Of a DNA stretch of 64,000 nucleotides, positions 4,346-42,841 are shown one piece after another. The stretch is from Corallococcus exiguus (GTDB lineage Bacteria > Myxococcota > Myxococcia > Myxococcales > Myxococcaceae). The position numbers were made by a program, and so were the translations under genes. Under the pieces are notes generated by a model. It was not told the origin of the DNA. It made no database searches and saw only the letters and a program-made list of their open reading frames with translations. The stretch lies in NCBI RefSeq assembly GCF_017302975.1, contig NZ_JAFIMT010000003.1. One strand, 5' to 3'. The first letter of the stretch is position 1; each line of letters opens with the position of its first letter.

Positions 4346-4531
4346 CGGGCCCGACTCTAGGAGGAGCCGCCCCATCCCCGTGAAAAATCGCGCGTCCCCA
4401 GTCCGACACTCGCACCCGGAGAGGCCCCCTGCCTGCCCGGCCTGTGCACCCGGGCACAGTGGCAACGGCTGGGACGCGCATGGCCATGAACGGAGGGCCT
4501 CCCCATCCTGCCTCCGCGACATTCACGGGGG

Positions 4532-5170: not shown

Positions 5171-5203
5171 CGGGAGCGCTTTCCGTCGCTGGATAAAAAT
5201 ACA

Positions 5204-5234
5204 GCTCGGGCTCTCAGAACCTGAGAGCCCGAGC
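5204..5234. terminator. Perfect 14-bp inverted repeat hairpin (gctcgggctctcag/ctgagagcccgagc), candidate intrinsic terminator
   Basis: Seen directly 34 nt downstream of the lipoprotein stop and upstream of the kinase gene. It is a GC-rich stem with a short loop and no U-tract, as is common in high-GC genomes. Confidence 0.45.
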
Positions 5235-5318
5235 GCGTTCACACGACCCGTGGGGGAGGATTCGACCCAGGTGCTTTCCAATCGTGTCGGACCGGTCTAG
5301 TAGGAATTTGGACCGCCG

Positions 5319-8705: not shown

Positions 8706-8735
8706 TTCCGTAGCACCGGGGAGCCCCGGGCACGG

Positions 8736-11504: not shown

Positions 11505-11642
11505 GGTGCGCTCGTATTCGGTGGGTGGCCGTACCGGAGCAATCTCCGGCAGGCCCCCATCGTGCACCAGTCGTGAGGAAGGGGACGGGGCAGCGGACGT
11601 TTCCCCATCCTGTTCCTTATGCGAGCGAACGGGCGGACGCCG

Positions 11643-12536
11643 TCACGACGCGCGCGCCTGCTCCACCACCGGCTTGAGCACGGTGCTGGCGAACTCCGCC
11701 AGCGTGGTGGGCGTGGTGGTCTCCTTCGAGCGGGGCTCGGCCGGATCCATGCGCCCGTCCTGGATGGCGCCGTACATCTCCACGAAGGTGTCCGCCGCGA
11801 AAGCGGGCATGCCCGCGCCCGTCATGCCCTTGCGCAGGTCGTCCAGGCCCACCCGCACGTACTTCACGGGCTGGCCCAGCACCTGGGTGAGGATGCTGGC
11901 GACCTCCGGATAGGTGAGGTCCTTGGGCCCGTGGACGCCCACATAGCGGTGGCCCGTCCACGACGGATCCAGGAGCACCTCGGCGGCCTTGGCCGCGATG
12001 TCCGCGGTGGCGACCATGGGGAAGGCCTTCGTCTCCGGGCTCGCGCTGAAGAGCGCGCCGGCCTTCGCCAGGCCGTGCACGTCGCGCAGCAGGTTCTCCA
12101 TGAAGAAGCCCGCGCGCAGGCTGACGACGTTGGGCGCCGCCGCCTGGAAGGCCTCTTCAATGGGCTTCAGCACGGACACCGGCCCCGTGCCCGCCCCGCT
12201 CTGCGCGCCGACGCTGGAGAGGATCACCACGCGCTTCACGCCGTGCGCCTTCACGCGCTCCGCGGCCAGCCGGCCGTTGGCCTTCGCCCAGTCCTGGAAG
12301 TCCGGGCGGATGGCGGGCGGCGACAGCCAGAACAGCGCCTCCGCGCCCACGAGCGCCGCGTCCAGCGTGGCCTGCTCCTCGATGGAGCCCTGCACCACCT
12401 TCGCGCCCAGCTTCACCAGGTCCGCCACCTTCTCCGGGGTGCGCGAAATGATGGTGACCTGACGGCCCGCCTTCAGCAGCTTCTCCACGAGGGGACGACC
12501 GATGTTGCCATTCGGGGTGTTGATGACGATGGACAT
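11643..12536 (-). CDS. NmrA-family NAD(P)H-binding protein
   Basis: MSIVINTPNGNIGRPLVEKLLKAG is an N-terminal Rossmann GxxGxxG motif, and length and topology match NmrA/atypical SDR. It is divergent from a LysR gene. Confidence 0.8.
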   Translation of the reverse strand: MSIVINTPNGNIGRPLVEKLLKAGRQVTIISRTPEKVADLVKLGAKVVQGSIEEQATLDAALVGAEALFWLSPPAIRPDFQDWAKANGRLAAERVKAHGVKRVVILSSVGAQSGAGTGPVSVLKPIEEAFQAAAPNVVSLRAGFFMENLLRDVHGLAKAGALFSASPETKAFPMVATADIAAKAAEVLLDPSWTGHRYVGVHGPKDLTYPEVASILTQVLGQPVKYVRVGLDDLRKGMTGAGMPAFAADTFVEMYGAIQDGRMDPAEPRSKETTTPTTLAEFASTVLKPVVEQARAS

Positions 12537-12607
12537 GGGGTTTGCCTCCAGCGACAGCGAGATGGCGCAACAGTGCTCCCGCGTCATTCATGAGGCCACT
12601 GCATGCT

Positions 12608-13621
12608 ATGCATACACCCATGCGCCGCGCTCATGAAACCCCAGCGGCCTCCCCCGCGGAGGTCGACCTCTCCGGCATCAACCTCAACCTGATGGTGACG
12701 CTGGACGCGCTGCTGAAGGAGGCGCACGTCACCCGCGCCGCCGCGCGCGTGGGCCGCACCCAGTCCGCGATGAGCCATGCGCTCGCGCAGCTGCGGGAGT
12801 TGCTGGGCGACGCACTGCTCATCCGCGGCCGGGGCGGCATGGTGCTGACACCTCGCGCGCAGCAGCTGGCCGCGCCGCTCAAGCGGGGGCTGGCGGAGCT
12901 GCGCCGGGCCCTGCGCGACGAGCCCGCGTTCGAGCCCGCCACCGCGACCCGCCGCTTCACCGTGGCCACTCGCGACTTCTTCGGGTCAGTACTGCTGCCA
13001 GGCGCGCTGGAGCTCCTGGGCCGTGAGGCGCCCGGAGTGGACCTGTCCGTACTGCACGTGGACAGCAACACCTTCGCGGGACAACTGGAGACGGGAGAAG
13101 TGGACCTGGCCATCATCGTCGCGCCCGTGCCGACCGGGCCGGGCCTGCGCCAGCAGAAGCTACTTACCGAGGACTTCGTCTGCGTGGTGCGCAAGGACCA
13201 CCCCACCGTGCGCCGCACGCTGGACGTGGACACCTACCTGAAGCTGTCCCACATCCTCATCAGCCCCAAAGGCGACGGAGTGGGCGCGGTGGACCTGGCC
13301 CTGGCCCAGCGCGGCCTGCCTCCGCGCCGCATCGCCGTGCGCGTGCCCTACTTCCTCATCGCACCGCTGGCGGTGTCGCGCTCCAACCACATCCTCACCG
13401 CGCCCCGCCGCCTCATCGCCGAGTTCCGCGACGCGTACGAACTCCAGGTCTTCCCTCCGCCCATCCCCTTGCGCCCCTTCGACATCCTCCAGGTCTGGCA
13501 CGAGCGCTTCGACGGAGATCCCGCGCACCAGTGGCTCCGCGAACTGGTGGCGCGGTCCGTCAACACAGGGTCTGAAAACACCCGGAGTTCACGAAGGGTG
13601 CGGCGCGCGCCAGCTTCCTGA
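12608..13621 (+). CDS. LysR-family transcriptional regulator
   Basis: N-terminal wHTH (LNLMVTLDALLKEAHVTRAAARVGRTQSAMSHALAQLRE) plus a C-terminal substrate-binding domain. It is arranged divergently from the NmrA gene. Confidence 0.85.
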   Translation: MHTPMRRAHETPAASPAEVDLSGINLNLMVTLDALLKEAHVTRAAARVGRTQSAMSHALAQLRELLGDALLIRGRGGMVLTPRAQQLAAPLKRGLAELRRALRDEPAFEPATATRRFTVATRDFFGSVLLPGALELLGREAPGVDLSVLHVDSNTFAGQLETGEVDLAIIVAPVPTGPGLRQQKLLTEDFVCVVRKDHPTVRRTLDVDTYLKLSHILISPKGDGVGAVDLALAQRGLPPRRIAVRVPYFLIAPLAVSRSNHILTAPRRLIAEFRDAYELQVFPPPIPLRPFDILQVWHERFDGDPAHQWLRELVARSVNTGSENTRSSRRVRRAPAS

Positions 13622-13691
13622 CACTCGGGGGACGCGACACTGAACGTCAGTACACAGGTGGGGGAGCATCGCATGGGGGGCTTCGTGTAGG

Positions 13692-14318
13692 GTGCTCCCC
13701 ATGAATCCTGAGAAGCTTGTCTTCGCCCAGACCGTGGACGCGCTCTTCGTCCGCGCGCTGGAGAACCGCCTGACGCCAGCGTGCCGCGAGCACCTGAAGC
13801 GGGCGGGGCTGGACCTCGACAAAAAGCTGGAGCGCTCCTATTCGCTGGAGCAGTGGCGGGAATTCCTGCGAATCGCGGCGGGCCACGTCTATGGCGGCGT
13901 GCCGGCGGAGGCCGCGTACTACTCCCTGGGCGAGCGCTTCATGGACGCCTACTTCGGCACCTTCTTTGGCCGAGCGCTCCTGGGCGTGGGCCGGCTGGCC
14001 GGTCCCCGGCGGATGCTGCTGCGGGCGGACCTGGGCTTTCGCGCCGGCAACAACTTCAGTGAAATCAAAATCGTGGAGCGCAGCGCGACATCGCTGGAGC
14101 TCTGGATGAACGACGTGCTGGCGGATCAGCCGACGTTCGCGGCGGGGCTGCTCGCGCGCGCGGTGGCGCTGTGCGGGGGCTGGCGGGTGGTGGCGCTGCC
14201 GGAGGAGTTCGACGGCACGGCGGCGACGTTCCACCTGCGCTGGAGCGAGGCCTCCGCGGAAGGGGCGCTCAGCGCCACTGAGGATGGGTCCGGAGGCGAC
14301 GCTCGACCTCAGGCGTGA
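13692..14318 (+). CDS. DUF2378 (TIGR02265, Myxococcus paralogous family) protein
   Basis: About 200 aa with the pattern LVFAQTVDALF...LDLDKKLERSYSLEQWREFLRIAA typical of this myxobacteria-restricted family. Confidence 0.6.
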   Translation: MLPMNPEKLVFAQTVDALFVRALENRLTPACREHLKRAGLDLDKKLERSYSLEQWREFLRIAAGHVYGGVPAEAAYYSLGERFMDAYFGTFFGRALLGVGRLAGPRRMLLRADLGFRAGNNFSEIKIVERSATSLELWMNDVLADQPTFAAGLLARAVALCGGWRVVALPEEFDGTAATFHLRWSEASAEGALSATEDGSGGDARPQA

Positions 14319-15120
14319 GGGTGCCCCCGTGCGGGGCCCGGGAGGACGAGCGCTCCCAGCGCTCCAGCCACCGGGTCCCCAGCGGGGCGGCCAGTGTTTC
14401 ATAGCGGGTCGAGGCCACGGTGGTCTCCCCCTTGGTGCCGGTGGACACGCCGGCGCCCACGTAGAACCCCGCGAGCAGCAGCGTGACGCGGGTGGGCGTG
14501 GCCGCGCTGTAGGTCATCAGCAGGGCGCCCTCTCCGTCTTCCCGGCAGTGCCGGCGCACCCGGGCGAGGACGGCTTCGGTCCACATGTCCGGGTTGGACG
14601 CGGGTGAGAACGGATCGAAGAAGACGAGGTCCGCCAGGGGCAGCTGCGCGTCCGGCTCCAGGAAGGGCACCGCGTCCCCCAGCTTGAGGGTCCACTGGAT
14701 GCCGGGCTCGCTCCAGGCGCCGTGCTTCATGAGGCTCTCGGCGGCTTCGCGGAACGGCTGGAGGAAGGGGAAGCCCTCCGCGTCCGCGAGCGCGAGCCGC
14801 AGCGGGGCCAGGTCCACCTCGAAGCTGACGATGTGCAGGTCGCGGGCGCGGTCCGGGCCCAGTTCCCGGGCGCGGGTGAGCGCGGCGACGGCGTTGGTGG
14901 CGGCGCCCAGGCCCACGTCATGGATGACGAGCGGCGGGCCGGGCTGGCGCAGGCGGTCCGCGAGGCCGGGCTGGTCGACGTAGAGGCGCAGGGCCTCCTG
15001 CCACGGGCCCACCGCGGGATGCATGACCTCGCCATGGCCCAGGTGGCGCACGGCGCGGTGGCCGTTGCGAAGGGTGACGAGCTCGAAGTCGCCGTCGCGC
15101 GGATGGGAGGGCTCGGACAT
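14269..15120 (-). CDS. MnmC-like SAM-dependent methyltransferase domain protein (DUF752; tRNA mnm5s2U-type methyltransferase domain, standalone)
   Basis: ...DVGLGAATN...LHIVSFE...FFDPFSPASNPDMWTEAVLARV...GALLMTYSAA matches the MnmC methyltransferase domain signature (DGFAPAKNPDMW in E. coli). It was recovered as the 3' 283 codons of the 573-aa ORF, with the ATG at 15118-15120. Confidence 0.7.
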   Translation of the reverse strand: MSEPSHPRDGDFELVTLRNGHRAVRHLGHGEVMHPAVGPWQEALRLYVDQPGLADRLRQPGPPLVIHDVGLGAATNAVAALTRARELGPDRARDLHIVSFEVDLAPLRLALADAEGFPFLQPFREAAESLMKHGAWSEPGIQWTLKLGDAVPFLEPDAQLPLADLVFFDPFSPASNPDMWTEAVLARVRRHCREDGEGALLMTYSAATPTRVTLLLAGFYVGAGVSTGTKGETTVASTRYETLAAPLGTRWLERWERSSSRAPHGGTLTPEVERRLRTHPQWR

Positions 15121-15168
15121 GGGGCTCCTGGCCTGGAGGGGATGTGTGGGAAAGGATGGGTGCCTAGC

Positions 15169-16164
15169 ATGACGACTCCAGGGCAGGAACATCGGGGCGC
15201 GCTTCACGGGGAGGACGTCCGGCACGGGGAGGCTCCGTTCGAGGGCGGCCAGGTGAGGCTGTCGCTGCGCGTGGAGGCAGGAACGCGCACGGTCTTGGCG
15301 GCCGCGTGGGAGGCGTCGGTGGAAGCCTCGGTGGACGCGGGGCATCCGCTGGCGGCGTGCCTGGAGTCGCTGTGCCAGAACGCGGTGGGCATGGCGGTGG
15401 ACGTGTTCCTGCGCTTCGACGACTTCCACTTGCGCGCGGGGTGTCCGGACGGGCTGGAGGCGACGGAGGAGGCGGGGCTGGCGGTGCGGGTGTTCCGGCT
15501 GGCCTTCAGCCAGTTCCACCCTCGGGCCACGGGGCCCGCGTATCTGTCGAGCGGACTGGTGCTGGCGAAGCTGCCCCGGGGCGCGAGTCCGGAGTGGGAC
15601 GAGCCGGGGTTCTACTTCGCGCACTACTACCGCGAAGAGCTGTGGGCCGCGGCGGTGGAGGAGGCGCGCCGGGGCGGCGTGCTGGGACCGCGAGCGGCGT
15701 GTGCGTACATCGATGCGCTGCTGGCGAAGGCGGATGACACGGTGGAGCTGGACTGGCCCGTGGAGCAGGGCACGGCGACCTGGGACTGGTTGACGCGCGT
15801 GTGCCTGCCGGCGGTGACGGGGGGCGCGGAGCGGACAAGGCGGTTGCTGGAAGGGGGGTACGGGGGCGCGAGCGGCACGGGGAGCTTCCCCTTCGGGCAC
15901 CTGGACGGAGGGTTTTGGCATCCGCCGGTGGGGCTGCCGGAGCCCGAGGACGTGGGGCACGCGGAGTTCATCCTCGGGGATTTGGAGCACCTGTTGCCGG
16001 AGCTGCCGAAGGACGGCGTGTTGCTGGCCGCGCCCCGGTGGATGGCGGTGGGACAGACACAGGACTCCCCTGCCCTGCGCCGGGCGGACATCTCAAGTGA
16101 GGAGGCCGGGGGCTTCGGCCTGTTCAACGCGGCGGCGCACGACGTGGGTGAAGACGATGATTGA
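15169..16164 (+). CDS. Hypothetical protein (acidic, Trp-rich)
   Basis: Clean ORF from the ATG at 15169 with coding-like composition. The 5' part of the 480-aa track ORF was rejected. Confidence 0.5.
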   Translation: MTTPGQEHRGALHGEDVRHGEAPFEGGQVRLSLRVEAGTRTVLAAAWEASVEASVDAGHPLAACLESLCQNAVGMAVDVFLRFDDFHLRAGCPDGLEATEEAGLAVRVFRLAFSQFHPRATGPAYLSSGLVLAKLPRGASPEWDEPGFYFAHYYREELWAAAVEEARRGGVLGPRAACAYIDALLAKADDTVELDWPVEQGTATWDWLTRVCLPAVTGGAERTRRLLEGGYGGASGTGSFPFGHLDGGFWHPPVGLPEPEDVGHAEFILGDLEHLLPELPKDGVLLAAPRWMAVGQTQDSPALRRADISSEEAGGFGLFNAAAHDVGEDDD

Positions 16165-16897
16165 TGGGCGCCTCCTGGGTGGGCTGGTGGCTCTGATCTG
16201 TCTGTCGTGCGCTTCGGGTCCAAGGCAGTACGCGCAGACCACGGACTCCGCGACCAATGGATGTCTGCGCAATCCCACCTGCTACACGCAGCCGGGGGAT
16301 GAGGCGTTCCTCCCGTGGGTGGACAAGGCCGTGAGGGCAGCGGCTTCCGCGGGAGCCACGATGAAGCTCCTGGAGGCGGCGGATGTGGCCCGCATCGAGC
16401 ACCTGTTGGTGGAGTGCGCCAAGGAAGCGGACTTCATCGTCAATGAGCGTGAGTACGGCGAGGGGAAGTATCCGGACGACAAGGAGTGCTTGCGCGTGGT
16501 TGGCCAGGACAAGGACGGCAAACCCATTTGGCGGCAAGCAGAGCTGGGGAAGTTGAAACACGCGGTTGCCTTCGCATGCGTTCAGCGAGAAGTCCGTCGA
16601 CTCTTTCCCGATAACGTCTCAATCGAGCCTCGCTACGGGACCTCCCCTACGTCAGGTGGCCCCACAATGACGAACATATGGAAGGGCTCGAAGAAGCCCG
16701 ACATCGTCCTTCATGCCACTGGCCAGCCACTCCAGATCCAATGCATTTTCGACCTCAAGTTCCCGTGCACGCTGAAAAGCAAGGGCGACCCCCTCTCCAA
16801 CGACGGAACCCGTGAACAAATGTCCCGCTACGCGGAGCTGAGAGGAAAGTGCAAGCCCGCGATCATCACGCCCCAGTTTGGAGTCTTGCGTGAATAA
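16157..16897 (+). CDS. Cys-rich lipoprotein of unknown function (candidate exported toxin-like protein)
   Basis: MIDGRLLGGLVALICLSCASG carries a lipobox, and the mature protein has at least 10 Cys. GC is locally lower, and the gene is translationally coupled to the next gene (overlap GTGAATAA). Confidence 0.6.
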   Translation: MIDGRLLGGLVALICLSCASGPRQYAQTTDSATNGCLRNPTCYTQPGDEAFLPWVDKAVRAAASAGATMKLLEAADVARIEHLLVECAKEADFIVNEREYGEGKYPDDKECLRVVGQDKDGKPIWRQAELGKLKHAVAFACVQREVRRLFPDNVSIEPRYGTSPTSGGPTMTNIWKGSKKPDIVLHATGQPLQIQCIFDLKFPCTLKSKGDPLSNDGTREQMSRYAELRGKCKPAIITPQFGVLRE

Positions 16898-17894
16898 GTA
16901 TCCGCTCCTTCAACACTTCTCCACGACGCTCCCCCGGGTCCAACTGGTCCTGCGCATCGTGTTCTATCTGCCGCATGACCACCGAGTGTTGGCCCCCGTC
17001 CTACGACAGGTCCTCAACACCTATCTTGGATTCATTGCGGCCAGTGGTGGGGCACTGACCTCTGGCTATGATCCCGACATCAGTGAGGATTCCTTCCCAC
17101 TCACTCCTGACACCTGGGAAGAGGTCCACACGGAGTTGGAGAAGGCTCGCTTTGGGCCTCTGGAGGACATGGACCAGGACTCCTTCTGGTTTTGGACCCT
17201 GACCAAGAGGAACTACGACACATGGGTTCTTCTCAAGGGAGGACATTCGGAGCCAGATGGCTACGAATTCAGTTTCGAGTCTCGGATCCCATGGAGAGAA
17301 CCCACTTCCGAGCACAGCGTTCTGAGCGTGAAGCTCCCAATAAGCTTCCTGGAGACGCAGGGGCCCGAGAAGGCCTTTGCACTGGCACGGTCCCTGGCGG
17401 AGCTTCTTCCGTTCTCCACGGGCCATGCCGGGCTGTCGCTCTCATTCACGCGCGGGAGGTCGAAGCTCCTTCCCCTTCTCAAGGAGCAGCTGTCCAGGCA
17501 TCCCGGCTGGCACGTTCCGCCTCCGCTGACGTGGGGCTTGGGACCGTGGATCGACGACGTGCACTGGCTGAACTTCCTGGGCCCTCCCCTGCTCGAAACC
17601 GTTGGCGGCATCCAGGCGCTTCGCTCGCACCTGAGCCATCCGGAGACCACCGTCCAGGAGCTCACCGGAGGCCGTGCCCTGATCAGCCTGGGCGCCGAGC
17701 CGCTCGCGGGGGACACAAAACGGGGTGAGACACTGCCGGCGTATCGCGAACTGGCCCGGTTCCTGGAGCCCTGGCTCCTGCCCTTCCCCCACGTCAACAC
17801 CTGGGACGGCTACACCGACGACGAGGCCCGCCTCTGGTGGCGCCGCTTCCTGGAGGGCCCTCCCGAAAAGATATCCGTTCCACGGGATGGGTAA
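16890..17894 (+). CDS. Hypothetical cytoplasmic protein coupled to upstream lipoprotein (candidate immunity-like partner)
   Basis: A GTG start overlaps the upstream stop by 8 nt. There is no signal peptide, and it shares the lower-GC segment. Confidence 0.55.
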   Translation: MNKYPLLQHFSTTLPRVQLVLRIVFYLPHDHRVLAPVLRQVLNTYLGFIAASGGALTSGYDPDISEDSFPLTPDTWEEVHTELEKARFGPLEDMDQDSFWFWTLTKRNYDTWVLLKGGHSEPDGYEFSFESRIPWREPTSEHSVLSVKLPISFLETQGPEKAFALARSLAELLPFSTGHAGLSLSFTRGRSKLLPLLKEQLSRHPGWHVPPPLTWGLGPWIDDVHWLNFLGPPLLETVGGIQALRSHLSHPETTVQELTGGRALISLGAEPLAGDTKRGETLPAYRELARFLEPWLLPFPHVNTWDGYTDDEARLWWRRFLEGPPEKISVPRDG

Positions 17895-32052: not shown

Positions 32053-35000
32053 GCCCTCGCGGGGAATCCCCTGATCGCCACCAGGGAGTGGAGGAACTCG
32101 TCCCAGTCTTGGAGAGACTCCGCGAACCTCTGGGCTGCGGAGTCCTCCGTTGCATAAGTGGAGACATGAACCAACTCGAGAAGTTGCCCACACTCGTCCG
32201 CGTGATTGACGAGCTCGCGTGCTTGGTCCTTCAGGCGCATGCGGAAGAACGTTTTCATCCTATCGGCAGGAAGAAACTTCTCGGCGAGTGTGGGCCATCT
32301 CTTTCCCCCTCCCTTAAGGAGCGCGAAACGCGCGGGCACCCTCCACTCCACATGCCGCGCCACCAGCAGCCTTTTCACGACCGTGACGGTGGCCGCTGAC
32401 TCCTCCATCACGAGTGCGAATAACCACTCGTGGAGGGCGTTCACCAGTTCCGGGGGCACCTGATCGAACGTGACGAGGTCTGCCTTGGACGATGTGTTGA
32501 TGCTGAATGGCGTCCTGACGAGCTTCAGCAACTGGTGAATCCGGTCCGCCCACCCCCTAGCGCCAAAGTCCAGGAGCGTCTCGATCGTGAATTGTTCGCC
32601 AGCATTTAACGACGTCAGCGGCGCTGCCCGGAAGTACTCGGCAAGCAACGAACGAACGTCACCGGGAGCAAAGAGAACGAGTCGACGGAGCAGCCCAGGG
32701 GCCTGACGCGACACCATCCGCCGAAGCTGATTGGCGACATGCAATGCGCTGTCCGCCAATGAGGGACTACTCAAGCCAGCCCGCCGTAACGCGCCCACTT
32801 GGCCCGTGAGGCATTCGAGCAGCGCCATCTGGGTTTCCCGCTCGTGCGCCAGACTGGCTCCTTCATCAAAGAGTTTCTCGGACCTCCGATCCCCCATCTT
32901 GAACAGCAACTCCGCATGGGCCCGGATTAGTTGAAGGCGCTCGAACCCGCTCGAATGTGAGTCTGAATGACCGCGCTCGTACGCCTCCAACGCCATGTCG
33001 AATTCCGCCATGTCGGAGAGTGCCGTACCCAGCAGCCTGCTCCATTCAGCCCCTTGACCGGATGGAGCCCGACTTGTGAGCAACTCGCGCACGAACTCGG
33101 GCTTGCCACGGCGCATGTCCTGCTCGGCCCGCTGCTTAGCGTACTGAGTCCAAACGCTGGAACTCAGCATCTCGCGCTCCTCCGGGTCCAGCACTTGGCC
33201 GAGCTTGGCCTTAAGAAAGGCGCGCGCCTGTGGCTGGAGGTCGGGGACCGCAGTCTTAAGGAGAGGCTCTGCATCCTCCGACCAACGCAGCTCAGCACGG
33301 TCGATCTTATCCAAGAGCAGATGATGGTAGAGTTCTTCAGCATGGTTGGCTGGACCTACGCGCTCAGCGTAGTAGGCGGCCGCGCGCTCATTGATCTGCC
33401 TGAACTTTCCGGGGTCGGAACGCTCCAAGTCGTCGCGGATCAACCCCAGCATAAAGGTCCGGATATCGCGACGATGCACGAGTACGTCGCCTCTGCGCGT
33501 CACCAGCGCGACTTCCTTTGCCATCTTCTCGAAGAGGGCGCGTGCTTTGACCTCGTCCACGTCTTTCAAGCCGCAAGGCTCCGCAAGCACCTTGGAGATC
33601 AGCTCGGGCGTAAGCTGCCGGAGGATTAACCCCGGATGTGCCAGTCGGGCGACCTCTTTGTCCACGTGAGAGAGAGTCCGGGTGAAGAGCTGCACCGCGA
33701 CATTCTCAGAGTCGTATTGTCCGAGCACGCGGGCGAGCCCCCCCCGCCTCACGCCGACGAGTTCCCCCATCACCAGCTCCGACTCGGAAACTCGTGTGAG
33801 TTCCTTGCGGACGAGGCCCACTGCCAGCTTGAGAGAGAGTGGGCTCGTCCCCACGTGAGACACTATCTCGTCGAGCATCTCTCGTGGCAGCGCCAGCCTA
33901 TTCTTCAGGAACTGGACAGCGGACCGCCGGTCCAATCCCTTGAGCCAAAACCCCTCGGCACTAGGCTCCGCAAGAGGAGCCCGACCGGAGATGACAACCC
34001 GCAGTTCCCCCCAGTCTCCGTTGTCGCTAAGGGTCTGCAACATCGAGAGAACCTCCGCCACGTCTCCATCCCCCGCGCGCTGCACCTCCTCGAACGTATC
34101 GAGAACAAGGAGGAGCGGTCTTCCGTCCCGAGTTAAGGGACGTACGGCGTTGCGCAACTGGCGCGCACCCTCATGCACAAGACGTGGGTCTCGCACCACC
34201 TCCTCCACATCAATGCTGGCGAACTCGGAGGAGCGGGCGCTCCGGTGTCGCTCGCGAAGCAGCCTCTCGAAGCGTTCGCGCTGCCGCCCCCCAAAGCTCT
34301 TGAGTTCCGTCCCGAGATGCGGGAACTGAAACGCAAGCTGTTGCGCCATCTCCTGCAAGAGGGATATGGGCTGGCGTGGCAGAAGGGTCGCCCGATCAAA
34401 GTCAAGGTAGACGAACGGAAACCGGCGCTCCGGATCCTGACGCGCATGTTCGACGAGAAACTGCGCCATCAATGTTGATTTGCCGATGCCCCCTGCCCCA
34501 TAGACAACAAAAGGTTGATAGTGAGAGTCGGCCCACCTCCGAACGGTCCGCACTAAGGATTTCAGCTCACGGCGTCCCCAGCCAGCCCAGGACTCAGGAG
34601 GCTGCACACCAACGTAGTCACTAAGCTTTCTCAGCTCTGTCGTGCGGCCAGCGAAACCCTCTCGAAGCAGCTCATCGAAGGGCTTGAGGATCTGCGCGAA
34701 CCCGAGCTGCTGGCGGACCCGCTCCGGGTTCGGCATCTCGACCGGTGTGCCCTCCAACCATTCACAAATCACTGCAGTCTTCGCAAGTTCGTCGACACTC
34801 TGCTGTTGGATCGGTGGTGCGGAACCATTGAGATATTGAGACAGTGCCTCCGACAGCTCGTCATCCGAGGCCGAGCTGCCCATGCGGCCCACCTCCAAGC
34901 GGATCTCCTTGGCTGACAGGGACCGCAGGACCTCCTTTCGAGGCGCTTCCTTGAGCATCCATCGCCGGTACCCCCGACGCGTGGTCACCGTGCTCTCCCT

Positions 35001-35234
35001 TAGGAGGCGGTCTAGCACCCCTCGTCGATGTTCCATCGATAGCTGCGGGGGCAAGAGCTGCGTTGGGTCGAAAGTACCGACCAAGGCGGCGCGCTTGCGC
35101 ACGGCACCATAGAGGTCGTCCACGACTCCCGCCTCCGGCAGGGCGAACGACTTTTCCAGTGTGCCGCGTATCGCCTCTCGCAGTTCCTCCGGAATCAGAG
35201 ACAGCGCTTCGTCAATGGGGCTCTTGCCTGCCAT
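32049..35234 (-). CDS. STAND/NB-ARC-like P-loop NTPase with approximately 230-aa N-terminal helical domain and approximately 550-aa C-terminal helical (TPR-like) repeat sensor region
   Basis: Walker A is VYGAGGIGKSTL and Walker B is RPLLLVLDTFEEV, followed by a GxP-like segment. There is a long Leu/Ala/Arg-rich helical C-terminus. A GAGGA RBS sits 6 nt upstream of the ATG, and the gene is the last of a three-gene operon. Confidence 0.8.
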   Translation of the reverse strand: MAGKSPIDEALSLIPEELREAIRGTLEKSFALPEAGVVDDLYGAVRKRAALVGTFDPTQLLPPQLSMEHRRGVLDRLLRESTVTTRRGYRRWMLKEAPRKEVLRSLSAKEIRLEVGRMGSSASDDELSEALSQYLNGSAPPIQQQSVDELAKTAVICEWLEGTPVEMPNPERVRQQLGFAQILKPFDELLREGFAGRTTELRKLSDYVGVQPPESWAGWGRRELKSLVRTVRRWADSHYQPFVVYGAGGIGKSTLMAQFLVEHARQDPERRFPFVYLDFDRATLLPRQPISLLQEMAQQLAFQFPHLGTELKSFGGRQRERFERLLRERHRSARSSEFASIDVEEVVRDPRLVHEGARQLRNAVRPLTRDGRPLLLVLDTFEEVQRAGDGDVAEVLSMLQTLSDNGDWGELRVVISGRAPLAEPSAEGFWLKGLDRRSAVQFLKNRLALPREMLDEIVSHVGTSPLSLKLAVGLVRKELTRVSESELVMGELVGVRRGGLARVLGQYDSENVAVQLFTRTLSHVDKEVARLAHPGLILRQLTPELISKVLAEPCGLKDVDEVKARALFEKMAKEVALVTRRGDVLVHRRDIRTFMLGLIRDDLERSDPGKFRQINERAAAYYAERVGPANHAEELYHHLLLDKIDRAELRWSEDAEPLLKTAVPDLQPQARAFLKAKLGQVLDPEEREMLSSSVWTQYAKQRAEQDMRRGKPEFVRELLTSRAPSGQGAEWSRLLGTALSDMAEFDMALEAYERGHSDSHSSGFERLQLIRAHAELLFKMGDRRSEKLFDEGASLAHERETQMALLECLTGQVGALRRAGLSSPSLADSALHVANQLRRMVSRQAPGLLRRLVLFAPGDVRSLLAEYFRAAPLTSLNAGEQFTIETLLDFGARGWADRIHQLLKLVRTPFSINTSSKADLVTFDQVPPELVNALHEWLFALVMEESAATVTVVKRLLVARHVEWRVPARFALLKGGGKRWPTLAEKFLPADRMKTFFRMRLKDQARELVNHADECGQLLELVHVSTYATEDSAAQRFAESLQDWDEFLHSLVAIRGFPARA

Positions 35235-35241
35235 GGCGTCC

Positions 35242-37092
35242 TCAGCTCAAACCCGTGGCGAACGCGGCGACTCCTCTCGCCAGCGCCTTGGAGAACGGCT
35301 CATCCTGGAGCTTGTTTGCACTCGCCATCATCACGAGGCCAGGCGCTATCTGGCTCAGCAGCGTGCGCGGAGTCTGCTTGCCGTGATGTTCCACATAACG
35401 CGCAAGGTACTCCGCCACCTCGTCGGAGCCGGGCGCCCGGGTGCGATCCACTTCCACGAGCGAGGCGAGCACCGTCAAGAGACTCGGTGGCCCGCCGATG
35501 AGGAGCCAGCGAAGTGCGGCGAGATGTGGCACCTCTCGCAATAACCGCACCAGGATGTCGAGCGTCTCGTCGTTCACGAACGTCTTCCGGTTGAAGTTAT
35601 CCAGCGCAATCCAGATCGAGAAGGATCCATTCACCTCCGCCGGGTAGCGGAGTGCGAATGCCGCAGTGAACCAGTCGAATAGGAGGGTGCTCGCCCAGCG
35701 CGCAGACTGACGGTCCACGGGTCGAGCTGGCGCGCCCTCCACCGGCAGTTTCAGGTCGCGTGCCAAGTCCATCAGGAACGCGTCAGGTGCCTTGTCCTGA
35801 ATCGCCGACATATCGTAGTCCATGACCACGTCCGGGCGCCCGGAGAACAGCCCTTTCATGATGTCGATGGAGAACGAGCACCCCGAGTCGTCATCACCTT
35901 CCACCACCAGGATGCGCTTTGGTGAGTGCGCCGCTCCCATTGTCCAGAGGATCTGCTGGAACTCAATGCGACCCAGAACTGGTGCCCCGGACGGCAATTG
36001 CCAGAGCGGCACGAATCCAGGAAGGTCCTGAGACTCAAACCCACCCTTCGACTGGATGTGGTCGCGGATCAACCAGATGGGTACCCCCTGGTTTAACTGC
36101 TGGTTCTGCACTTCCGCGTGGTGGAGCGCGACAAGCCCGAACCGGATATCGAAGCATGGTGCGCCGGAAGCCCCCTTCATCGTGTTCACGGCGTAGCGCA
36201 ACCGCGCTTGGCGGGTGTCCATGGCCTTGAACGGTCCAAAGGCAATGTGGAGCGCATGACCCGCCGGGTGCTGCCCGATGACCAGCGGCTGGTCCGGTTC
36301 GAGCGTCATGGTCGTGGAGGACCCGGCAGGGAACTCCACCCAACCGCGCTCCTGCCCCCCACCCGTGCCGACGGGCGCCCTTCCCACGGGTTTGGCGAGG
36401 TTGAGCACCGCGTAGTCCAGCAGCGTCAGGCAGTCCGGTGGATTGGGCAGTTCCAGGACAATGCCGTCTTCCGGGTGTCCCGGGCTCATCGGTCCCAGCC
36501 AGTCGTCCCGCAGCGCCACGGCTGTTCCCGGGAGCAGCTCAGTCCCATCCGCGAGAGCGACGTAGTCGAAACGGCATCGGATCTTCTCTCCGACGCTCGG
36601 CAGGGGCGCCCCCTCCGCGTCGAAACACGTCGCGATGACGTGATAGGCTGTGAGCACGCGATCCGGCGCGATGAGCACACCGGTTCCCATCGCATTCGCT
36701 TCCACCTCAATCCGGCAGATCTGCTGCCCGCGCTTCTGCATCTGGGCCGAGAACACAGTCCAGGGCGCCATGGGTCCGTTGTAAGTGATGAGGCTTTGTA
36801 GGGGAGAGGCGTCGGCAGCCTGAGTCCCCAGCCGCGACAGGAATTGCATTAGCCTGGGCGTCTTAGGAGCATCTCGCAGCAGATAGGCGATTAGCTTAGC
36901 AGTGGCCCCGTTGAGCGTCACCCAATCAAGCAGCACCCCCGGCCCGGATTCCTCGGACGCGCCGGGCGCGATGACGTCCAGGCTCTGCTTGAACCACATC
37001 TCGATGAGAGCGCGCAGCTTTGGGCCTTCCAATTCTGCGGACAGGATGGAGGCCAGCTCGGTACGTTCCTGAGGGGTGAGCGCCAGTTGCAT
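35242..37092 (-). CDS. Three-module protein: N-terminal small helical domain (EAD-like) + trypsin-like serine peptidase + C-terminal domain of unknown function
   Basis: His motif is GTGVLIAPDRVLTAYHV, Asp is in DYAVLNL, and Ser motif NTMKGASGAPCF is GDSGGP-like. The roughly 100-aa N-terminal helical module is MQLALTPQERTELASIL...LRALIEMWFKQ. The C-terminal approximately 280 aa have no recognisable motif. The gene lies 9 nt after the upstream protease gene. Confidence 0.75.
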   Translation of the reverse strand: MQLALTPQERTELASILSAELEGPKLRALIEMWFKQSLDVIAPGASEESGPGVLLDWVTLNGATAKLIAYLLRDAPKTPRLMQFLSRLGTQAADASPLQSLITYNGPMAPWTVFSAQMQKRGQQICRIEVEANAMGTGVLIAPDRVLTAYHVIATCFDAEGAPLPSVGEKIRCRFDYVALADGTELLPGTAVALRDDWLGPMSPGHPEDGIVLELPNPPDCLTLLDYAVLNLAKPVGRAPVGTGGGQERGWVEFPAGSSTTMTLEPDQPLVIGQHPAGHALHIAFGPFKAMDTRQARLRYAVNTMKGASGAPCFDIRFGLVALHHAEVQNQQLNQGVPIWLIRDHIQSKGGFESQDLPGFVPLWQLPSGAPVLGRIEFQQILWTMGAAHSPKRILVVEGDDDSGCSFSIDIMKGLFSGRPDVVMDYDMSAIQDKAPDAFLMDLARDLKLPVEGAPARPVDRQSARWASTLLFDWFTAAFALRYPAEVNGSFSIWIALDNFNRKTFVNDETLDILVRLLREVPHLAALRWLLIGGPPSLLTVLASLVEVDRTRAPGSDEVAEYLARYVEHHGKQTPRTLLSQIAPGLVMMASANKLQDEPFSKALARGVAAFATGLS

Positions 37093-38541: not shown

Positions 38542-39984
38542 ATGTACCCGAGACGCCGTCTTCTGGCCCGTGGACCGTGGCTGTTTGATCTCAGACCGCA
38601 TCAGCTCACCGTCTTCCACGGTGCCGAAGGCGTGCGCCGGGAGGTCAGTGGAGACGTGCCGAATCCACCGACCGCGCCCGTGGTGCTCGCCGCGCTGGAT
38701 GAAGCAAAGTACGTCTGGGTGGGATGCGGGGATCGGCGTGCCTTCTCCGTGGGGGCGAGCGCTCCCGTCCAGGCCTTTCCGAGGGAGTGCTTCGATCTAA
38801 TCTCTGATGGGAACCGGCTCATCGGAACGGAGGTGGACGGCGCCCTCAAGCTGAGCACCCTCTTCACGACCGATGGGTCCGGGCAGCGATGGGAGACCAT
38901 GACCTTGCTCAAGCCCGTGTCCGCCAGGCACGGGTACGGATATAGCGAGGGGCGCCCCCACCGTCAGTCCCCTGATGGGGCGTTCCTCGACACGAGCCCC
39001 TTTGGCATCACTGTCGTGGAAAAGGGCCGAGGCCGTGTCTACGTGCTTCGCCCGGGCGCGGCTCAGCCAGAGGGAGCGCTCCAGGTGGAGCCGGGCCATG
39101 AGCAGGACATCTGGCGGGCCCTGGCCACTCCTCACGGCGTGCTTCTCCTGCTCGTCATCAACTACCGGCAGACGGTGCTCCTCCACTTCGTGCTCGACGG
39201 CACCTTGCTCGGCTCCATCCCGGCTCAGGACGATGAGGACGATGAGGATGATGAACTGACCTGGGGCGGTGCCGGGGTGTGCGTCCTCGACGCGGACCGG
39301 GCGCTCCTCTTCGTCCAGGACAAGGTCCTCCTGGTGTCCCTGCCCGGGCTCCAGGTGATGGAGACGCTCGCGGGGGAATGGCCCCGCTTCGTGTCCGTGA
39401 CGCCCGCAGGGGCTGATCGGTGGTGGGTGGGCCCCGAGGACAGTGACGCGCTCTTCCTGCTCACCGCGGAGCCCGGACACCCCTTGCGCCTCGACGCCTC
39501 GAACCGTCCGGTGAGCCCGGGCGCGCCGCTCATGCACGTGGGCTACAAGACGCCCGCGATCCACTGGACCGAGTACATTTCGGCGCCGCTGACCGTTTCC
39601 GCTCCCGTGACCGAGACGTGGCGGGCGGTGGTACGCAATGACGGGACCGCGTGTGAGGCGGTGCGGATCCGGGTGTCCGGGGTGCTCGTCGGTGCTCGCG
39701 CGGTGGACGTGAGCGTGCGGTATCGCGGCCAGCCGCTCCCGATGGTGGAGGAGTTCCGCGTGAACGCCGTCGGCGTTACCGCTGGACTGGAGGGAGGGGC
39801 CACCGCGGAGCTGGAGGTGAGCTTCAAGCCTCGGGGCGAGGGCTCAGGACCGCTGACCATCACCGTCGAGCCGTGCTCCTGGCAGTCGCAGGGCAAAGAG
39901 TGGCAGTGGGACAAAGAGGAGCCTCGCGTCCTCGCGGTGACGGGTCATCCAGCATCCGCCCAGTTCCTTCTCACGGTGGAGTAG
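38542..39984 (+). CDS. Hypothetical protein (beta-rich, no signal peptide recognised)
   Basis: Long ORF from an ATG with coding-like composition and an acidic DDEDDEDDE linker. Confidence 0.5.
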   Translation: MYPRRRLLARGPWLFDLRPHQLTVFHGAEGVRREVSGDVPNPPTAPVVLAALDEAKYVWVGCGDRRAFSVGASAPVQAFPRECFDLISDGNRLIGTEVDGALKLSTLFTTDGSGQRWETMTLLKPVSARHGYGYSEGRPHRQSPDGAFLDTSPFGITVVEKGRGRVYVLRPGAAQPEGALQVEPGHEQDIWRALATPHGVLLLLVINYRQTVLLHFVLDGTLLGSIPAQDDEDDEDDELTWGGAGVCVLDADRALLFVQDKVLLVSLPGLQVMETLAGEWPRFVSVTPAGADRWWVGPEDSDALFLLTAEPGHPLRLDASNRPVSPGAPLMHVGYKTPAIHWTEYISAPLTVSAPVTETWRAVVRNDGTACEAVRIRVSGVLVGARAVDVSVRYRGQPLPMVEEFRVNAVGVTAGLEGGATAELEVSFKPRGEGSGPLTITVEPCSWQSQGKEWQWDKEEPRVLAVTGHPASAQFLLTVE

Positions 39985-41068
39985 CGCGAACCTTCTCGGG
40001 CTCGGGTGCGGCGCTCATCCTCCAGAGCAGGGCGCCGCCCCCAAGCAGGAGACCCAAGCCCACTGCCGCCACGAGGATCCAGCCTCGTCCCACGCGGGGC
40101 CGGGCCTGGCTCTCCGGGCCGTCTGGAGCCGGGGCGACGACGGCCGGGTCGTCACTTGGAGAGACCTGCTGGACGAGCTGGGCCACCTGCTGGGATGTCA
40201 CCGGCTCCCCAACCGAACGGATGAAGGCCTCCAGGTCCTTCCGGAACGCGTGGCAGTCCGGGTAGCGCTCGTCCCGATCCTTCACGAGCGCCCGGGCGAG
40301 GATGGCTCGAAGGGCATCGGGTAGGTCCGGCCGGTGCTGCTCCGCGGGCACCATGGGCTCGTTTGCGACGGCCCGAAACAAGTTGAATTCGGACACGGAT
40401 TCAAAAGGTCTGTGCGTGGTGAGCAGTTCGTAGAGCACCAGACCGAGTGAGTAGACGTCCACCCGCCGGTCCGGCGACACGCCCATGATCTCCTCGGGCG
40501 CCATGTACCTGTACTTGCTCATGTCGGGGTAGTGGTACTCGGGGGCCCACCGTACCCGGAAGTAGTCGATGCCGAAGTCCACCACCTTGGCCGTCCCCTG
40601 GCGCGTCAGGAGAATGTTGTACGGCCGGACGCAGCGGTGGATGAGCCGCAGCGACTCGTTCGTCTTGGGATCGGTGAGGTCGTGGGCGTAGGCGAGCCCC
40701 TCGCAGGCTTGCGAGATGATGCGCGCGCACAGGGTCGCCGGCAGCATCATCCGCTGGGCCACCACGTGCTTGATCACCCTGCGCAGGCTGGGCCCATCGA
40801 TGTGCTCCCTGGCGAGGAAGTACGTGCCGTCCGTCTCACCCACGTCGACGACCTTCGCAAGGTGCGGATGCGTGAGCCGGGCGGCGTCCCTCGCCGTGTC
40901 GAGGAACATCTCCGGGAAATCCGTCTGCTCGGCCATGTCCGAGCGGAGGCACTGGAGCACCAGCGTCTTCTCGATGCCCTGAGGGTTGGCGGCCGTGGCC
41001 AGAGAATCTTCGATGATTCCTTCGACCAGCGGGCGGATGCGCTGGTATTTGCCGACGTGGGATGTCAC
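39971..41068 (-). CDS. Membrane-anchored pseudokinase (Hanks fold with degenerate G-loop, missing beta3 Lys and HRD Asp)
   Basis: The kinase-fold motifs DFG, YMAPE and DVYSLG are present. The catalytic loop reads HRCVRPYN, with Cys replacing the catalytic Asp and Arg replacing Lys. The G-loop position reads RPLVEGIIEDS with no glycines, and VAIK is replaced by TLVLQ. A C-terminal TM helix is present. The start was chosen at the GTG at 41068 to avoid overlap with the divergent gene. Confidence 0.6.
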   Translation of the reverse strand: MTSHVGKYQRIRPLVEGIIEDSLATAANPQGIEKTLVLQCLRSDMAEQTDFPEMFLDTARDAARLTHPHLAKVVDVGETDGTYFLAREHIDGPSLRRVIKHVVAQRMMLPATLCARIISQACEGLAYAHDLTDPKTNESLRLIHRCVRPYNILLTRQGTAKVVDFGIDYFRVRWAPEYHYPDMSKYRYMAPEEIMGVSPDRRVDVYSLGLVLYELLTTHRPFESVSEFNLFRAVANEPMVPAEQHRPDLPDALRAILARALVKDRDERYPDCHAFRKDLEAFIRSVGEPVTSQQVAQLVQQVSPSDDPAVVAPAPDGPESQARPRVGRGWILVAAVGLGLLLGGGALLWRMSAAPEPEKVRATPP

Positions 41069-41089
41069 GGAGCGTATGAATAGCAGACC

Positions 41090-42841
41090 ATGACCCGGTA
41101 TCGCTTCCTTGGGCTTCTGCTGGCGCTGCTTCCGCTCCATGTCGGCGCTGTCCCCATTCCCGCGGAGCAGTTGGTGGGCATCTGGGGCGGTGAGCGCGTC
41201 CTCGGGCCTCAGGTTCGCGGAGAGCTGACACTGGTGCGGGCTGGGAACTCCTGGCACGCGCGCATCGCAGGCGTCGACGTCCCGGCCCGGGTCGAGGGTC
41301 GGAAGGTGTCCGTCATCTTCCCAGGAGGCGAACTCCGAGCGACGTTGGCGGAGAACGGGCAGAGCATCACGGGCCACTGGATCCAGCCGCGTGTGCTCAT
41401 GAGCGGCATGAAGTTCGCCACTCCCGTGGAACTGCGCGCGCTTCAGCCGGGTGTCTGGCGCGGCAACGTGGCGCCGCTGGAGGACCGGTTCTCGCTGTAT
41501 CTCGTCGTCCAGAAGCAGCCTGACGGCTCCGTGAAGGCGTTCATCCGCAACCCGGAGCGGAACTTCGGCAACCGGATGCTCTTCCGTGTCGACCTCCAGG
41601 GCCGCACGGTCCGGCTCACGTCCACCAAGGACAACACCCAGATCGAAGGCACGTTCGACGCGGAGTCCGGACGGCTGTCGCTCCCCTACCCTCCCTTCGA
41701 CACGACGTTCGACTTCACCCGCCGGGACCGGTCGCAGGCCGTGGGGCTCTACTCCCGCACGCCCGCTCCCGGCCCCTACGCCTACCAGAAGCCCATCGGG
41801 GAGGACGATGGCTGGACCACGGCATCCCCCGCCGACGTCGGCATGGACATCCAGCCGATCCAACAGCTCGTGCAGCGCATCCTCGACCAGGAACCGAGCC
41901 CGGAGTCCGTCCCCGCCATCCAGGGGCTGCTCATCGCGCGCCACGGGAAGCTCATCGTCGAAGAGTATTTCCAGGGCTTCGACAAGGAGCGCCCCCACGA
42001 CCTGCGCTCCTCCTCCAAGTCCTACGCGTCCCTGCTGATTGGCATTGCCCTGGACCAGGGTGCCCCCTTCACCGTGGACACGCCCGTCGCCTCACTCTTC
42101 CCCGAGTACAAGGGCAAGCTCTCCCACCTGGACGCGCGCAAGCGCAAGCTCACCGTCGCGCACTTGATGACCATGGCGACGGGCCTGGCCTGTGACGACG
42201 ACAATCCGGATTCACCCGGCAACGAGGACCGGCTCGAGGACTCCGTACCGGATTGGTACAAGTACACGCTGGACCTCCCCATGGTCCGTTCTCCCGGCGA
42301 CGGGAAGGCCGTGTACTGCTCCGCGAACATCAACCTGCTGGGCGGCGTCCTCCGCAACACCACCCGCACCTGGATCCCCGAGTTCTTCACGAAGAACGTC
42401 GCCACGCCCCTGCAGATGCGCGGCTACCACCTGGACCTGATGCCCGACGGCGAGCAGTACCTCGGCGGCGGCATCTACATGCGCCCGCGCGATGCCCTGA
42501 AGCTCGGGCAGCTCTACCTCTCCGGTGGCACTTGGAACGGGAAGCGCGTGGTCAGCCAGCGCTGGGTGGAACGCTCCGTCGCGAACCAGGCGACGATGCC
42601 GGACGGACGAACCTATGGCTACACGTGGTGGCGCCATGAGCTTCGCGTCGGCGACCGCGTGTATTCGCAATACGAAGCCAGCGGCAACGGTGGCCAGCTG
42701 GTGATGGTCGTCCCGGAGCTGGACCTTGTCGTGCTGTTCACCGCGGGCAACTACAACCACGTCGCCATCTGGCGGAAGTTCCGCGAGGAACTCCTGCCTC
42801 GATACATCATGGCCGCGGTCTCCACGCCCCCGCGGCCTTGA
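41090..42841 (+). CDS. Secreted beta-lactamase/transpeptidase-family serine hydrolase with N-terminal extra domain
   Basis: There is a signal peptide and the SxxK motif SSSKSY. A YxN-like motif and a C-terminal beta-lactamase fold (GYTWW...GNGGQ) are also present. Confidence 0.8.
   Translation: MTRYRFLGLLLALLPLHVGAVPIPAEQLVGIWGGERVLGPQVRGELTLVRAGNSWHARIAGVDVPARVEGRKVSVIFPGGELRATLAENGQSITGHWIQPRVLMSGMKFATPVELRALQPGVWRGNVAPLEDRFSLYLVVQKQPDGSVKAFIRNPERNFGNRMLFRVDLQGRTVRLTSTKDNTQIEGTFDAESGRLSLPYPPFDTTFDFTRRDRSQAVGLYSRTPAPGPYAYQKPIGEDDGWTTASPADVGMDIQPIQQLVQRILDQEPSPESVPAIQGLLIARHGKLIVEEYFQGFDKERPHDLRSSSKSYASLLIGIALDQGAPFTVDTPVASLFPEYKGKLSHLDARKRKLTVAHLMTMATGLACDDDNPDSPGNEDRLEDSVPDWYKYTLDLPMVRSPGDGKAVYCSANINLLGGVLRNTTRTWIPEFFTKNVATPLQMRGYHLDLMPDGEQYLGGGIYMRPRDALKLGQLYLSGGTWNGKRVVSQRWVERSVANQATMPDGRTYGYTWWRHELRVGDRVYSQYEASGNGGQLVMVVPELDLVVLFTAGNYNHVAIWRKFREELLPRYIMAAVSTPPRP

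Follow-up and report, generated by a model that had tools for sequence, protein, structure and literature searches.

A candidate CARD-protease with a decayed AAA+ domain in a four-gene system of Corallococcus exiguus

What kind of system would employ a trypsin-like protease that carries a further module at each end, neither of which is recognised by the common domain libraries? This question is raised by an open reading frame (ORF) of 616 amino acids (aa) on the minus strand at 35242..37092 of a 64,000-nucleotide (nt) stretch of Corallococcus exiguus DNA, the whole of which is called the window below. From comparisons of sequences and predicted structures we conclude that the product of this gene is very probably the CARD-protease ('protease 2', LypA-type) in a CARD-NLR abortive-infection system of four genes acquired horizontally by the C. 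exiguus strain. Its C-terminal domain is an AAA+/STAND-like nucleotide-binding domain of the ORC/Cdc6/STAND kind, with catalytic motifs that have decayed in the Corallococcus orthologue.

The ORF is present in full, with the trypsin-like protease in its middle, and an identical NCBI protein is named 'trypsin-like peptidase domain-containing protein [Corallococcus exiguus]'. Pfam recognises Trypsin_2 alone (aa 136-322, E 5e-11) and makes zero assignments to the N- and C-terminal ends, while NCBIfam and PADLOC return weak protease matches only; for aa 350-616 none of the three gives a direct assignment. The peptides quoted in an earlier reading of the DNA (the sequence-only reading) are all located in this protein, namely GASGAPCF (which includes Ser309), RILVVEGDDDSGCSF (aa 393-407) and WIALDNF (aa 494-500). 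In the AlphaFold2 model of the complete protein, built from a 14-sequence alignment (mean predicted local distance difference test score, pLDDT, 82), it is clear that there are three folded modules, with aa 90-109 modelled as a disordered linker. The proposal of a three-module protease made by the sequence-only reading is thus borne out, as are its placing of the gene in the middle of an operon (the order being protease 1, the 616-aa protein and a STAND ATPase, all on the minus strand) and its separate helical unit in the N-terminal ~100 aa, since aa 1-95 form six helices (7-20, 23-34, 38-41, 50-60, 64-74 and 79-92) of an EAD1-like kind, followed by the linker. The C-domain, which it had put at ~280 aa, measures ~253 aa (364-616); this domain is no disordered or linker region, the outcome named as adverse in that reading, as its separate model is well folded (pLDDT 87.6, predicted TM score 0.83).

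The protease domain itself has an intact catalytic triad, with the codons of His151 at 36640-36642, Asp226 at 36415-36417 and Ser309 at 36166-36168, and the three residues are invariant in 129 of 129 full-length family members. When the full-length model was submitted to Foldseek, trypsin folds and nothing else were returned; for the protease domain the best matches were V8/Esp glutamyl endopeptidases and exfoliative toxins.

The nature of the C-domain emerges from its fold and its relatives. Its model shows a P-loop core of three layers (alpha-beta-alpha) and, after it, a helical lid. In an alignment of 14 full-length relatives, RILVVEGDDDSGCSF falls on VRGGAGSGKTF, GGHGKSF and LGEPGTGKSF, the Walker A position, and WIALDNF falls on WIVLDD and WLVFDG, the Walker B position. 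The isolated C-domains of 12 relatives were matched by Pfam to AAA_22 (7/12), AAA_16 (5), NPHP3_N (4) and NACHT (2). A C-domain profile gave no significant match among PDB sequences. Further upstream, the peptide PVLGR (aa 371-375), with an invariant Pro371 and nearly invariant Gly374 and Arg375, provides an hhGR motif; a motif of this kind, immediately preceding the Walker A strand, is said to have been described by Leipe and colleagues in 2004 as a STAND signature. A novel fold, which was also considered, was rejected, the fold being of the AAA+/STAND nucleotide-binding kind. The earlier statement that the C-domain has no assignable motif is therefore fair as far as Pfam on this protein goes, and fails once the relatives reveal the decayed AAA+/STAND-like ATPase domain. 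Nor is the architecture unusual, as had been claimed: it has already been published, and when the C-domain profile was used in an exhaustive hidden Markov model (HMM) search, the cluster representatives recovered numbered 1,830 at E<=1e-3 and 147 at E<=1e-30, almost all of them proteins of 600-650 aa with the domain at ~aa 360-620. The exhaustive search was needed to see the size of the family, as a word-indexed homologue search with the C-domain alignment had returned 6 proteins only.

How far the nucleotide-binding motifs have decayed is best seen by comparing the 129 full-length members with the Corallococcus protein. The Walker A pattern GxxxxGK[ST] is not matched by its GDDDSGCS, nor is the Walker B pattern hhhhD[DE] by its WIALDN. 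At position 405, the P-loop lysine, the family has Lys in 91 members, Arg in 26, Leu in 6, Ala in 3, Met in 2 and Cys in 1, the last being the Corallococcus protein, while its closest relatives keep an Arg there (GSGRTF in P0002 and KAGRTF in P0005). The P-loop residues Gly404 (kept in 127/129), Ser406 and Phe407 (122/129) are all retained in the Corallococcus protein. In the Walker B strand, Trp494 is kept in 128/129 members and Asp498 in 66/129; position 499 is Asp or Glu in 81/129 and Asn in Corallococcus. Across the family the P-loop Lys (71 %) and the Walker B Asp (51 %) are thus loosely kept when compared with the invariant protease triad. The AAA+ core as a whole, in contrast to its motifs, is conserved in the close clade as strongly as the protease domain (69 vs 71 %, 52 vs 50 % and 47 vs 45 %), and must therefore still be under selection despite the motif loss. 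Since a Cys stands in for the P-loop Lys and an Asn for the Walker B acid, and three Asp residues fill the P-loop, the C-domain of the Corallococcus orthologue is, judging by these residues, most likely not a hydrolase; more probably it is a structural, regulatory or oligomerisation module required for protease function.

As for the N-module, the Pfam EAD1 domain (PF19955) precedes the protease in shorter relatives of ~350 aa, and a profile of the family N-module aligned in hhalign with the EAD1 profile of these short EAD1-trypsin homologues at 93.7 % (E 2e-7, 81 columns). An HMM built from the short EAD1 proteins only also matched the first ~95 residues of the protein (8-99 when counted in the stop-to-stop frame, E 1.8e-8), with no other convincing match within the window. 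On the N-modules of two orthologues, Pfam PF19955 scored below its gathering threshold of 24.2 bits (21.9 bits in P0003 and 16.9 bits in P0008). Because the relation to PF19955 is visible by profile-profile comparison only, the N-module is best named EAD1-like. A search for a homotypic partner found no similarity between the N-module and the N-terminal region of protease 1. Docking by homotypic contacts only was dropped from consideration, since the CARD of LypA in Caulobacter binds LypB's N-terminal domain, as judged from AlphaFold3 (interface predicted TM score, ipTM, 0.85) and a bacterial two-hybrid assay (PMC13236601). The docking of the N-module to the STAND NTPase, put forward in the sequence-only reading, fits these data on the homologues (PMC13236601, PMC10312443).

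The operon as a whole can be compared with an experimentally validated system, that of Pedobacter rhizosphaerae DSM 18610, which protects against phage, as does its Lysobacter homologue (PMC10312443). It was recovered as one of our own loci (L019), with a gene content that agrees with the publication. In BLASTP, the 616-aa protein aligns with the Pedobacter CARD-protease over 572 aa, colinear from aa 35 (E 2e-31), the STAND with the Pedobacter NLR-like protein over 636 aa from aa 24, covering the N-terminal domain and the nucleotide-binding domain (NBD; E 5e-26), and protease 1 with the Pedobacter protease 1 (E 7e-23). With all three core proteins colinear with the validated system, the operon is best read as a CARD-NLR system, a class listed in DefenseFinder (PMC13236601), with a NucA effector. 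Of the parts of such a system, a trypsin domain with an intact triad, an NLR-like STAND, a second protease upstream and a neighbouring endonuclease are at hand, and the EAD1-like N-module is a candidate for the CARD. The locus likewise has the make-up of the NucA-trypsin 'System 3', in which Endonuclease_NS and trypsin-like peptidases occur with optional EAD1 and STAND.

Six metagenome loci, in which the STAND-type ATPase is ~1,000-1,240 aa long, and ~25 genome loci from six phyla have the conserved trio of protease 1, three-module protein and STAND. The genome scan was made in species-representative genomes with an alignment of the Bacteroidota/Acidobacteriota-type subfamily, and gave 29 loci in Burkholderiales, Acidobacteriota, Bacteroidota, Armatimonadota, Polyangiaceae and Planctomycetota. 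Judging by HMMs made from our own alignments, the three-module gene has a STAND after it wherever the flank is long enough, and nearly always a protease 1 homologue directly upstream. Genes for an Endonuclease_NS occur in ~19 of the ~28 related loci, and the NucA of the window is homologous over its full length to the nucleases of other loci. In the metagenome loci the effector is an Endonuclease_NS or, in L001, a gasdermin/alpha-beta-hydrolase protein; the latter, 721 aa long and encoded at 3773-5938 on the minus strand, divergent from the trio, is matched in Pfam by Bact_GSDM and alpha/beta-hydrolase entries. In L014 (8950-13209) and L029 (8873-12796), the STAND and the Endonuclease_NS share one stop-free reading frame, and may be STAND-NucA fusion proteins.

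Fusions also occur within the STAND clade itself. There are many STAND-EAD1-trypsin proteins of ~1,300 aa, two STAND-EAD1-trypsin-AAA+ proteins of ~1600 aa (P0300 and P0318) and two STAND-EAD1-AAA+ proteins lacking the protease (P0233 and P0292), in addition to plain STAND-EAD1 proteins. The protease-free fusions show that EAD1 can serve to attach the AAA+ module alone.

The other three genes of the operon and its vicinity (Table 1) fit into this picture. Protease 1 has Trypsin_2 at aa 180-357 (Pfam, E 4e-15) and matches PADLOC PDLC03010 (E 5e-16). In the STAND, nt 34590-35234 encode a helical N-terminal domain that is conserved, and nt 34029-34571 an NBD whose Walker A, GAGGIGKST, is intact; Pfam matches AAA_16, NPHP3_N and NACHT at aa 222-402, and the C-terminal region is helical. 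At its C-terminus there is a probable EAD1/CARD-like domain, as suggested by hhalign of STAND-family C-termini against EAD1 (74-82 %, E 1e-5), by Pfam EAD1 matches, below threshold, to the C-termini of the L005 and L006 orthologues, and by a clear EAD1 at the same place in relatives.

The nucA gene is convergent with the STAND gene, their ends overlapping by 4 nt including the stop codons. Since it lies opposite to the operon strand, it must be expressed from a promoter of its own, within the ~430-bp gap after an ABC-F gene. Ahead of the Endonuclease_NS domain, NucA has an N-terminal extension of ~50 aa, approximately DLxRKAxLxxMxRL ... EPETPAE ... FxGRxGYxPxFL, that is conserved across phyla in the homologues compared (those of the window, L002, L006, L007, L009, L010, L013, L016, L017, L020, L021, L023 and L027), and none of these has an obvious signal peptide. 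This extension could serve as a pro-segment or a docking segment.

Two further ORFs stand beside the operon. One of 480 aa (38542-39984, plus strand), divergent from it, has no match in Pfam, NCBIfam or PADLOC and shows no relation to the ORF of equal length (480 aa) next to the L002 system. The other, of 675 aa (39971-41998, minus strand), has a C-terminal half that by eye resembles a Hanks-type Ser/Thr kinase, with the features LIHRCVRPYNILL ... VVDFGI ... YMAPEE, and after it a hydrophobic segment.

The region has the character of an island. Its G+C content at ~29-39 kb of the window is ~0.60-0.65, against ~0.67-0.73 in the flanks, and a scan of species-representative genomes with a close-clade alignment gave 48 matching stretches and 0 relatives; no tRNA gene marking the island was found. 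The low G+C together with the missing close relatives in these genomes suggests a strain-variable, horizontally acquired island. In L002/L003 the system (8001-17022) is located between conjugative-transfer genes (TraK, TraE, TraL, TrbC and a TraG/TrwB-like ATPase) and an IS66 fragment, which places it on a mobile element there.

Table 1. Positions in the window of the operon genes and of the modules and motifs of the 616-aa protein
Feature	Position	Strand	Description or basis
Probable CARD-protease, 616 aa	35242..37092	-	EAD1/CARD-like module + trypsin-like protease + degenerate AAA+ domain
N-module, aa 1-95	36808..37092	-	Six-helix EAD1/CARD-like adaptor; AlphaFold2, hhalign and HMM
Trypsin-like serine protease domain, aa 123-350	36043..36726	-	Trypsin_2, triad, Foldseek
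C-domain, aa 364-616	35245..36003	-	AAA+ (ORC/Cdc6/STAND-like) nucleotide-binding core and helical lid
Decayed Walker A/P-loop GDDDSGCSF, aa 399-407	35872..35898	-	Family consensus G-x-x-G-[ST]-G-K-[TS]-F
Walker B strand WIALDN, aa 494-499	35596..35613	-	Asp retained, next acidic residue is Asn
Protease 1, 390 aa	37102..38274	-	Trypsin-like peptidase with ~170-aa N-terminal region; first operon gene
NLR-like STAND ATPase, 1061 aa	32049..35234	-	N-terminal domain, NBD and helical C-terminal region
Probable EAD1/CARD-like domain, STAND C-terminus, aa ~965-1040	32115..32342	-	hhalign
NucA-type (Endonuclease_NS) effector, 311 aa	31117..32052	+	Endonuclease_NS aa 73-280, E 1.3e-49 (Pfam)

A working model can be drawn by joining the domain identities, residue conservation, synteny and homology to validated systems described above with what has been published on the homologues. 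In the Lysobacter-type system the CARD, the active site of protease 2 and the ATPase are essential, and deletion of the predicted C-terminal CARD-like domain of the NLR-like protein renders the system toxic (PMC10312443). By extension, the same three parts (CARD, active site of protease 2, ATPase of the STAND) would be required in Corallococcus also, and the C-terminal domain of the STAND would restrain the system. For this locus we infer an order of activation in which an infection cue would be sensed by the NLR-like STAND ATPase, leading to its ATP-dependent oligomerisation, with the STAND C-terminal CARD-like domain acting as the brake. The EAD1/CARD-like N-module would tether the 616-aa protease to the STAND, by homology through the STAND N-terminal domain, and the resulting clustering would activate the trypsin-like domain with its intact triad. 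The activated protease would then release the effector, either directly or via protease 1, and the released effector, a cytoplasmic NucA-type non-specific endonuclease, would destroy the cell's DNA.

Several observations do weigh against the assignment and the model. The N-module of the 616-aa protein has no Pfam EAD1 match, even at E<=10, and neither the N-domain nor the family profiles retrieved, in a PDB sequence search, the bacterial CARDs with known crystal structures (8SRZ and 8SS1; PMC10312443). Neither the 616-aa protein itself nor its C-domain alone has a Pfam match to any ATPase family. Profile comparison found no sequence similarity between the N-module and the N-terminal 230 aa of the STAND, so that their contact would be a heterotypic one, for which the data are those of LypA and LypB only. 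The nucA gene is inverted here, in contrast to all other loci inspected, where it is co-directional with the trio and usually just downstream of the STAND. Finally, the active site of the LypC endonuclease is dispensable for lysis in Caulobacter (PMC13236601); given this result, NucA is not guaranteed to be the killing effector.

Among the competing explanations, we take first those about the C-domain. The main one holds that the C-domain of the Corallococcus orthologue still binds ATP in a non-canonical manner despite Cys405, and that the nucleotide gates the protease. LypA is a precedent for it: although without the Walker A/B residues, it has ATP-Mg placed in its pocket by AlphaFold3 (ipTM 0.96), and its pocket mutant T356A/S360A/F361A is inactive (PMC13236601). 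The retention of Ser406-Phe407 after the lysine position and of Gly404, as well as the purifying selection on the AAA+ core, would also agree with a bound nucleotide. On the other hand, the three acidic side chains of GDDDSGCSF, with no Lys or Arg among them, would repel phosphates, the nearest relatives still have an Arg (P0002, P0005) where the Corallococcus protein is the extreme case, and the Walker B acids are weakly kept throughout the family. We therefore regard such a nucleotide switch as possible, if on balance unlikely. A nucleotide-free state of the C-domain is what these residues would suggest instead; we could then imagine, as a speculation of rather low probability, that the AAA+ domain of the CARD-protease is a nucleotide-free pseudo-ATPase that co-assembles with, or caps, the oligomerised STAND NOD, giving signalosomes made of two AAA+ proteins. 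The idea of the sequence-only reading, which saw in the C-domain a second effector or else a module of unassigned type for substrate recognition or sensing, is very unlikely to hold. It could draw on the missing direct assignments for aa 350-616 in Pfam, NCBIfam and PADLOC, and the AAA+ lid or core could yet touch substrates, but it is largely refuted by the fold and the family motifs, which are those of an AAA+/STAND nucleotide-binding domain with a decayed Walker A; besides, nothing resembling an effector turned up, and the role of sensor already falls to the neighbouring STAND, whose helical C-terminal region is long.

Two other explanations concern the cassette as a whole. Corallococcus is a developmental, lysing organism, which counts in favour of a co-option of the locus for programmed lysis (release of gene transfer agents or prophages, or developmental autolysis) in place of an anti-phage role in this host. 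So do the CARD-NLR homologue LypABC, which is required for gene transfer agent release in Caulobacter and lies outside defence islands (PMC13236601), and the enrichment of NucA-trypsin systems in multicellular bacteria (29/45 organisms; PMC7159879). The low-GC island, the narrow-clade scan, which found the cassette in no species-representative genome (as fits a strain-variable mobile defence cassette), the conjugation genes around the L002/L003 systems and the anti-phage defence by the Lysobacter and Pedobacter homologues (PMC10312443) all speak against co-option, which thus seems quite unlikely to us. More improbable still, and rejected here, is a non-functional cassette in which the P-loop loss and the nucA inversion are marks of early pseudogenisation. 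Among the 129 relatives, a Cys in place of the Walker A lysine is indeed found only once, and nucA lies on the opposite strand unlike in every other locus; but all four ORFs are full-length, catalytic residues are intact in the protease (its triad), in the STAND (GAGGIGKST, Walker A) and in the nuclease (the DRGH motif), the lysine has been lost (as Arg) in the whole close clade, and conservation is as high in the AAA+ core as in the protease domain. The reading as a CARD-NLR abortive-infection system remains the preferred one.

These results allow an unannotated myxobacterial island to be read as a CARD-NLR abortive-infection system whose effector is a NucA, and they put names to both ends of its protease. 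What sets the locus apart is modest: the architecture is published and widespread, the features specific to this locus are the extreme P-loop loss and the inverted nucA, and the known picture of how CARD-NLR systems work is unchanged by these results. Of possible use to the field are the contrast between an invariant triad and loose AAA+ motifs, and the STAND-EAD1-trypsin fusions with or without AAA+. In the low-probability reading of a nucleotide-free pseudo-ATPase, the Corallococcus clade would have lost every phosphate-binding feature of the P-loop while its domain stayed under selection of protease strength, and this would be natural evidence that the module can do without nucleotide binding. 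The Corallococcus orthologue, with the most extreme P-loop loss, is a convenient natural test of the need for a nucleotide.

It is instructive to place the locus among the systems it resembles, from the more distant to the closer ones. In the eukaryotic apoptosome and inflammasome (Apaf-1/caspase-9, NLRC4/caspase-1 and the CAD nuclease), a death-fold adaptor bridges a STAND/NLR ATPase and a protease, and the protease in turn switches on a pore former or a DNase. The protease is a caspase there and a serine protease here, and the AAA+-like domain on the Corallococcus protease has no counterpart in caspases. The trypsin-MBL modules of Avs and Hachiman share the logic of an NTPase sensor, a trypsin-like protease plus a pro-nuclease unmasked by proteolysis, but have an MBL nuclease and a protease fused to the sensor, with no CARD adaptor and no second AAA+ (PMC12799240); the resemblance is one of analogy and not of shared membership.

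Much closer is the NucA-trypsin conflict system predicted by Kaur et al. in 2020, with EAD1, STAND and a proteolytic cascade that deploys NucA (PMC7159879). Its 'System 3' has Endonuclease_NS, several trypsin-like peptidases, one of them with EAD1, and a STAND NTPase in some operons. It differs in resting on a computational study only (45 organisms, mostly alphaproteobacteria), in which the short degenerate AAA+ domain was not described as such (PMC7159879). The Lysobacter operon consists of a gasdermin, which is cleaved, two trypsin-like proteases and an NLR-like STAND, and most homologous operons have an endonuclease or a phospholipase in place of the gasdermin (PMC10312443). Protease 1, CARD-protease and NLR-like STAND with an effector are thus common to the Lysobacter/Pedobacter type and Corallococcus, as is the C-terminal CARD-like domain predicted on the NLR-like protein (PMC10312443). 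The identity to the Corallococcus proteins is only ~24-31 %, however; the effector is a plain 311-aa NucA in Corallococcus as compared with a gasdermin or a phospholipase-endonuclease fusion, and Pedobacter retains the Walker A GEPYSGKSF where Corallococcus has GDDDSGCSF.

In domain layout the counterpart is LypA of Caulobacter, here compared by its published description and by the shared homology to the Lysobacter/Pedobacter type. Its CARD (1-80), trypsin-like peptidase (85-305) and ATPase domain without the conserved Walker A/B residues (324-592) repeat the three modules of the Corallococcus protein in unchanged order and at almost equal size (PMC13236601). As in Corallococcus, an NLR-like ATPase follows (LypB, Orc1-like and TPR-containing) and a trypsin/endonuclease partner is present (PMC13236601). 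LypABC differs in its role, gene transfer agent release, and in that protease 1 and the endonuclease are fused as LypC, whereas in Corallococcus they are encoded by separate genes with nucA inverted.

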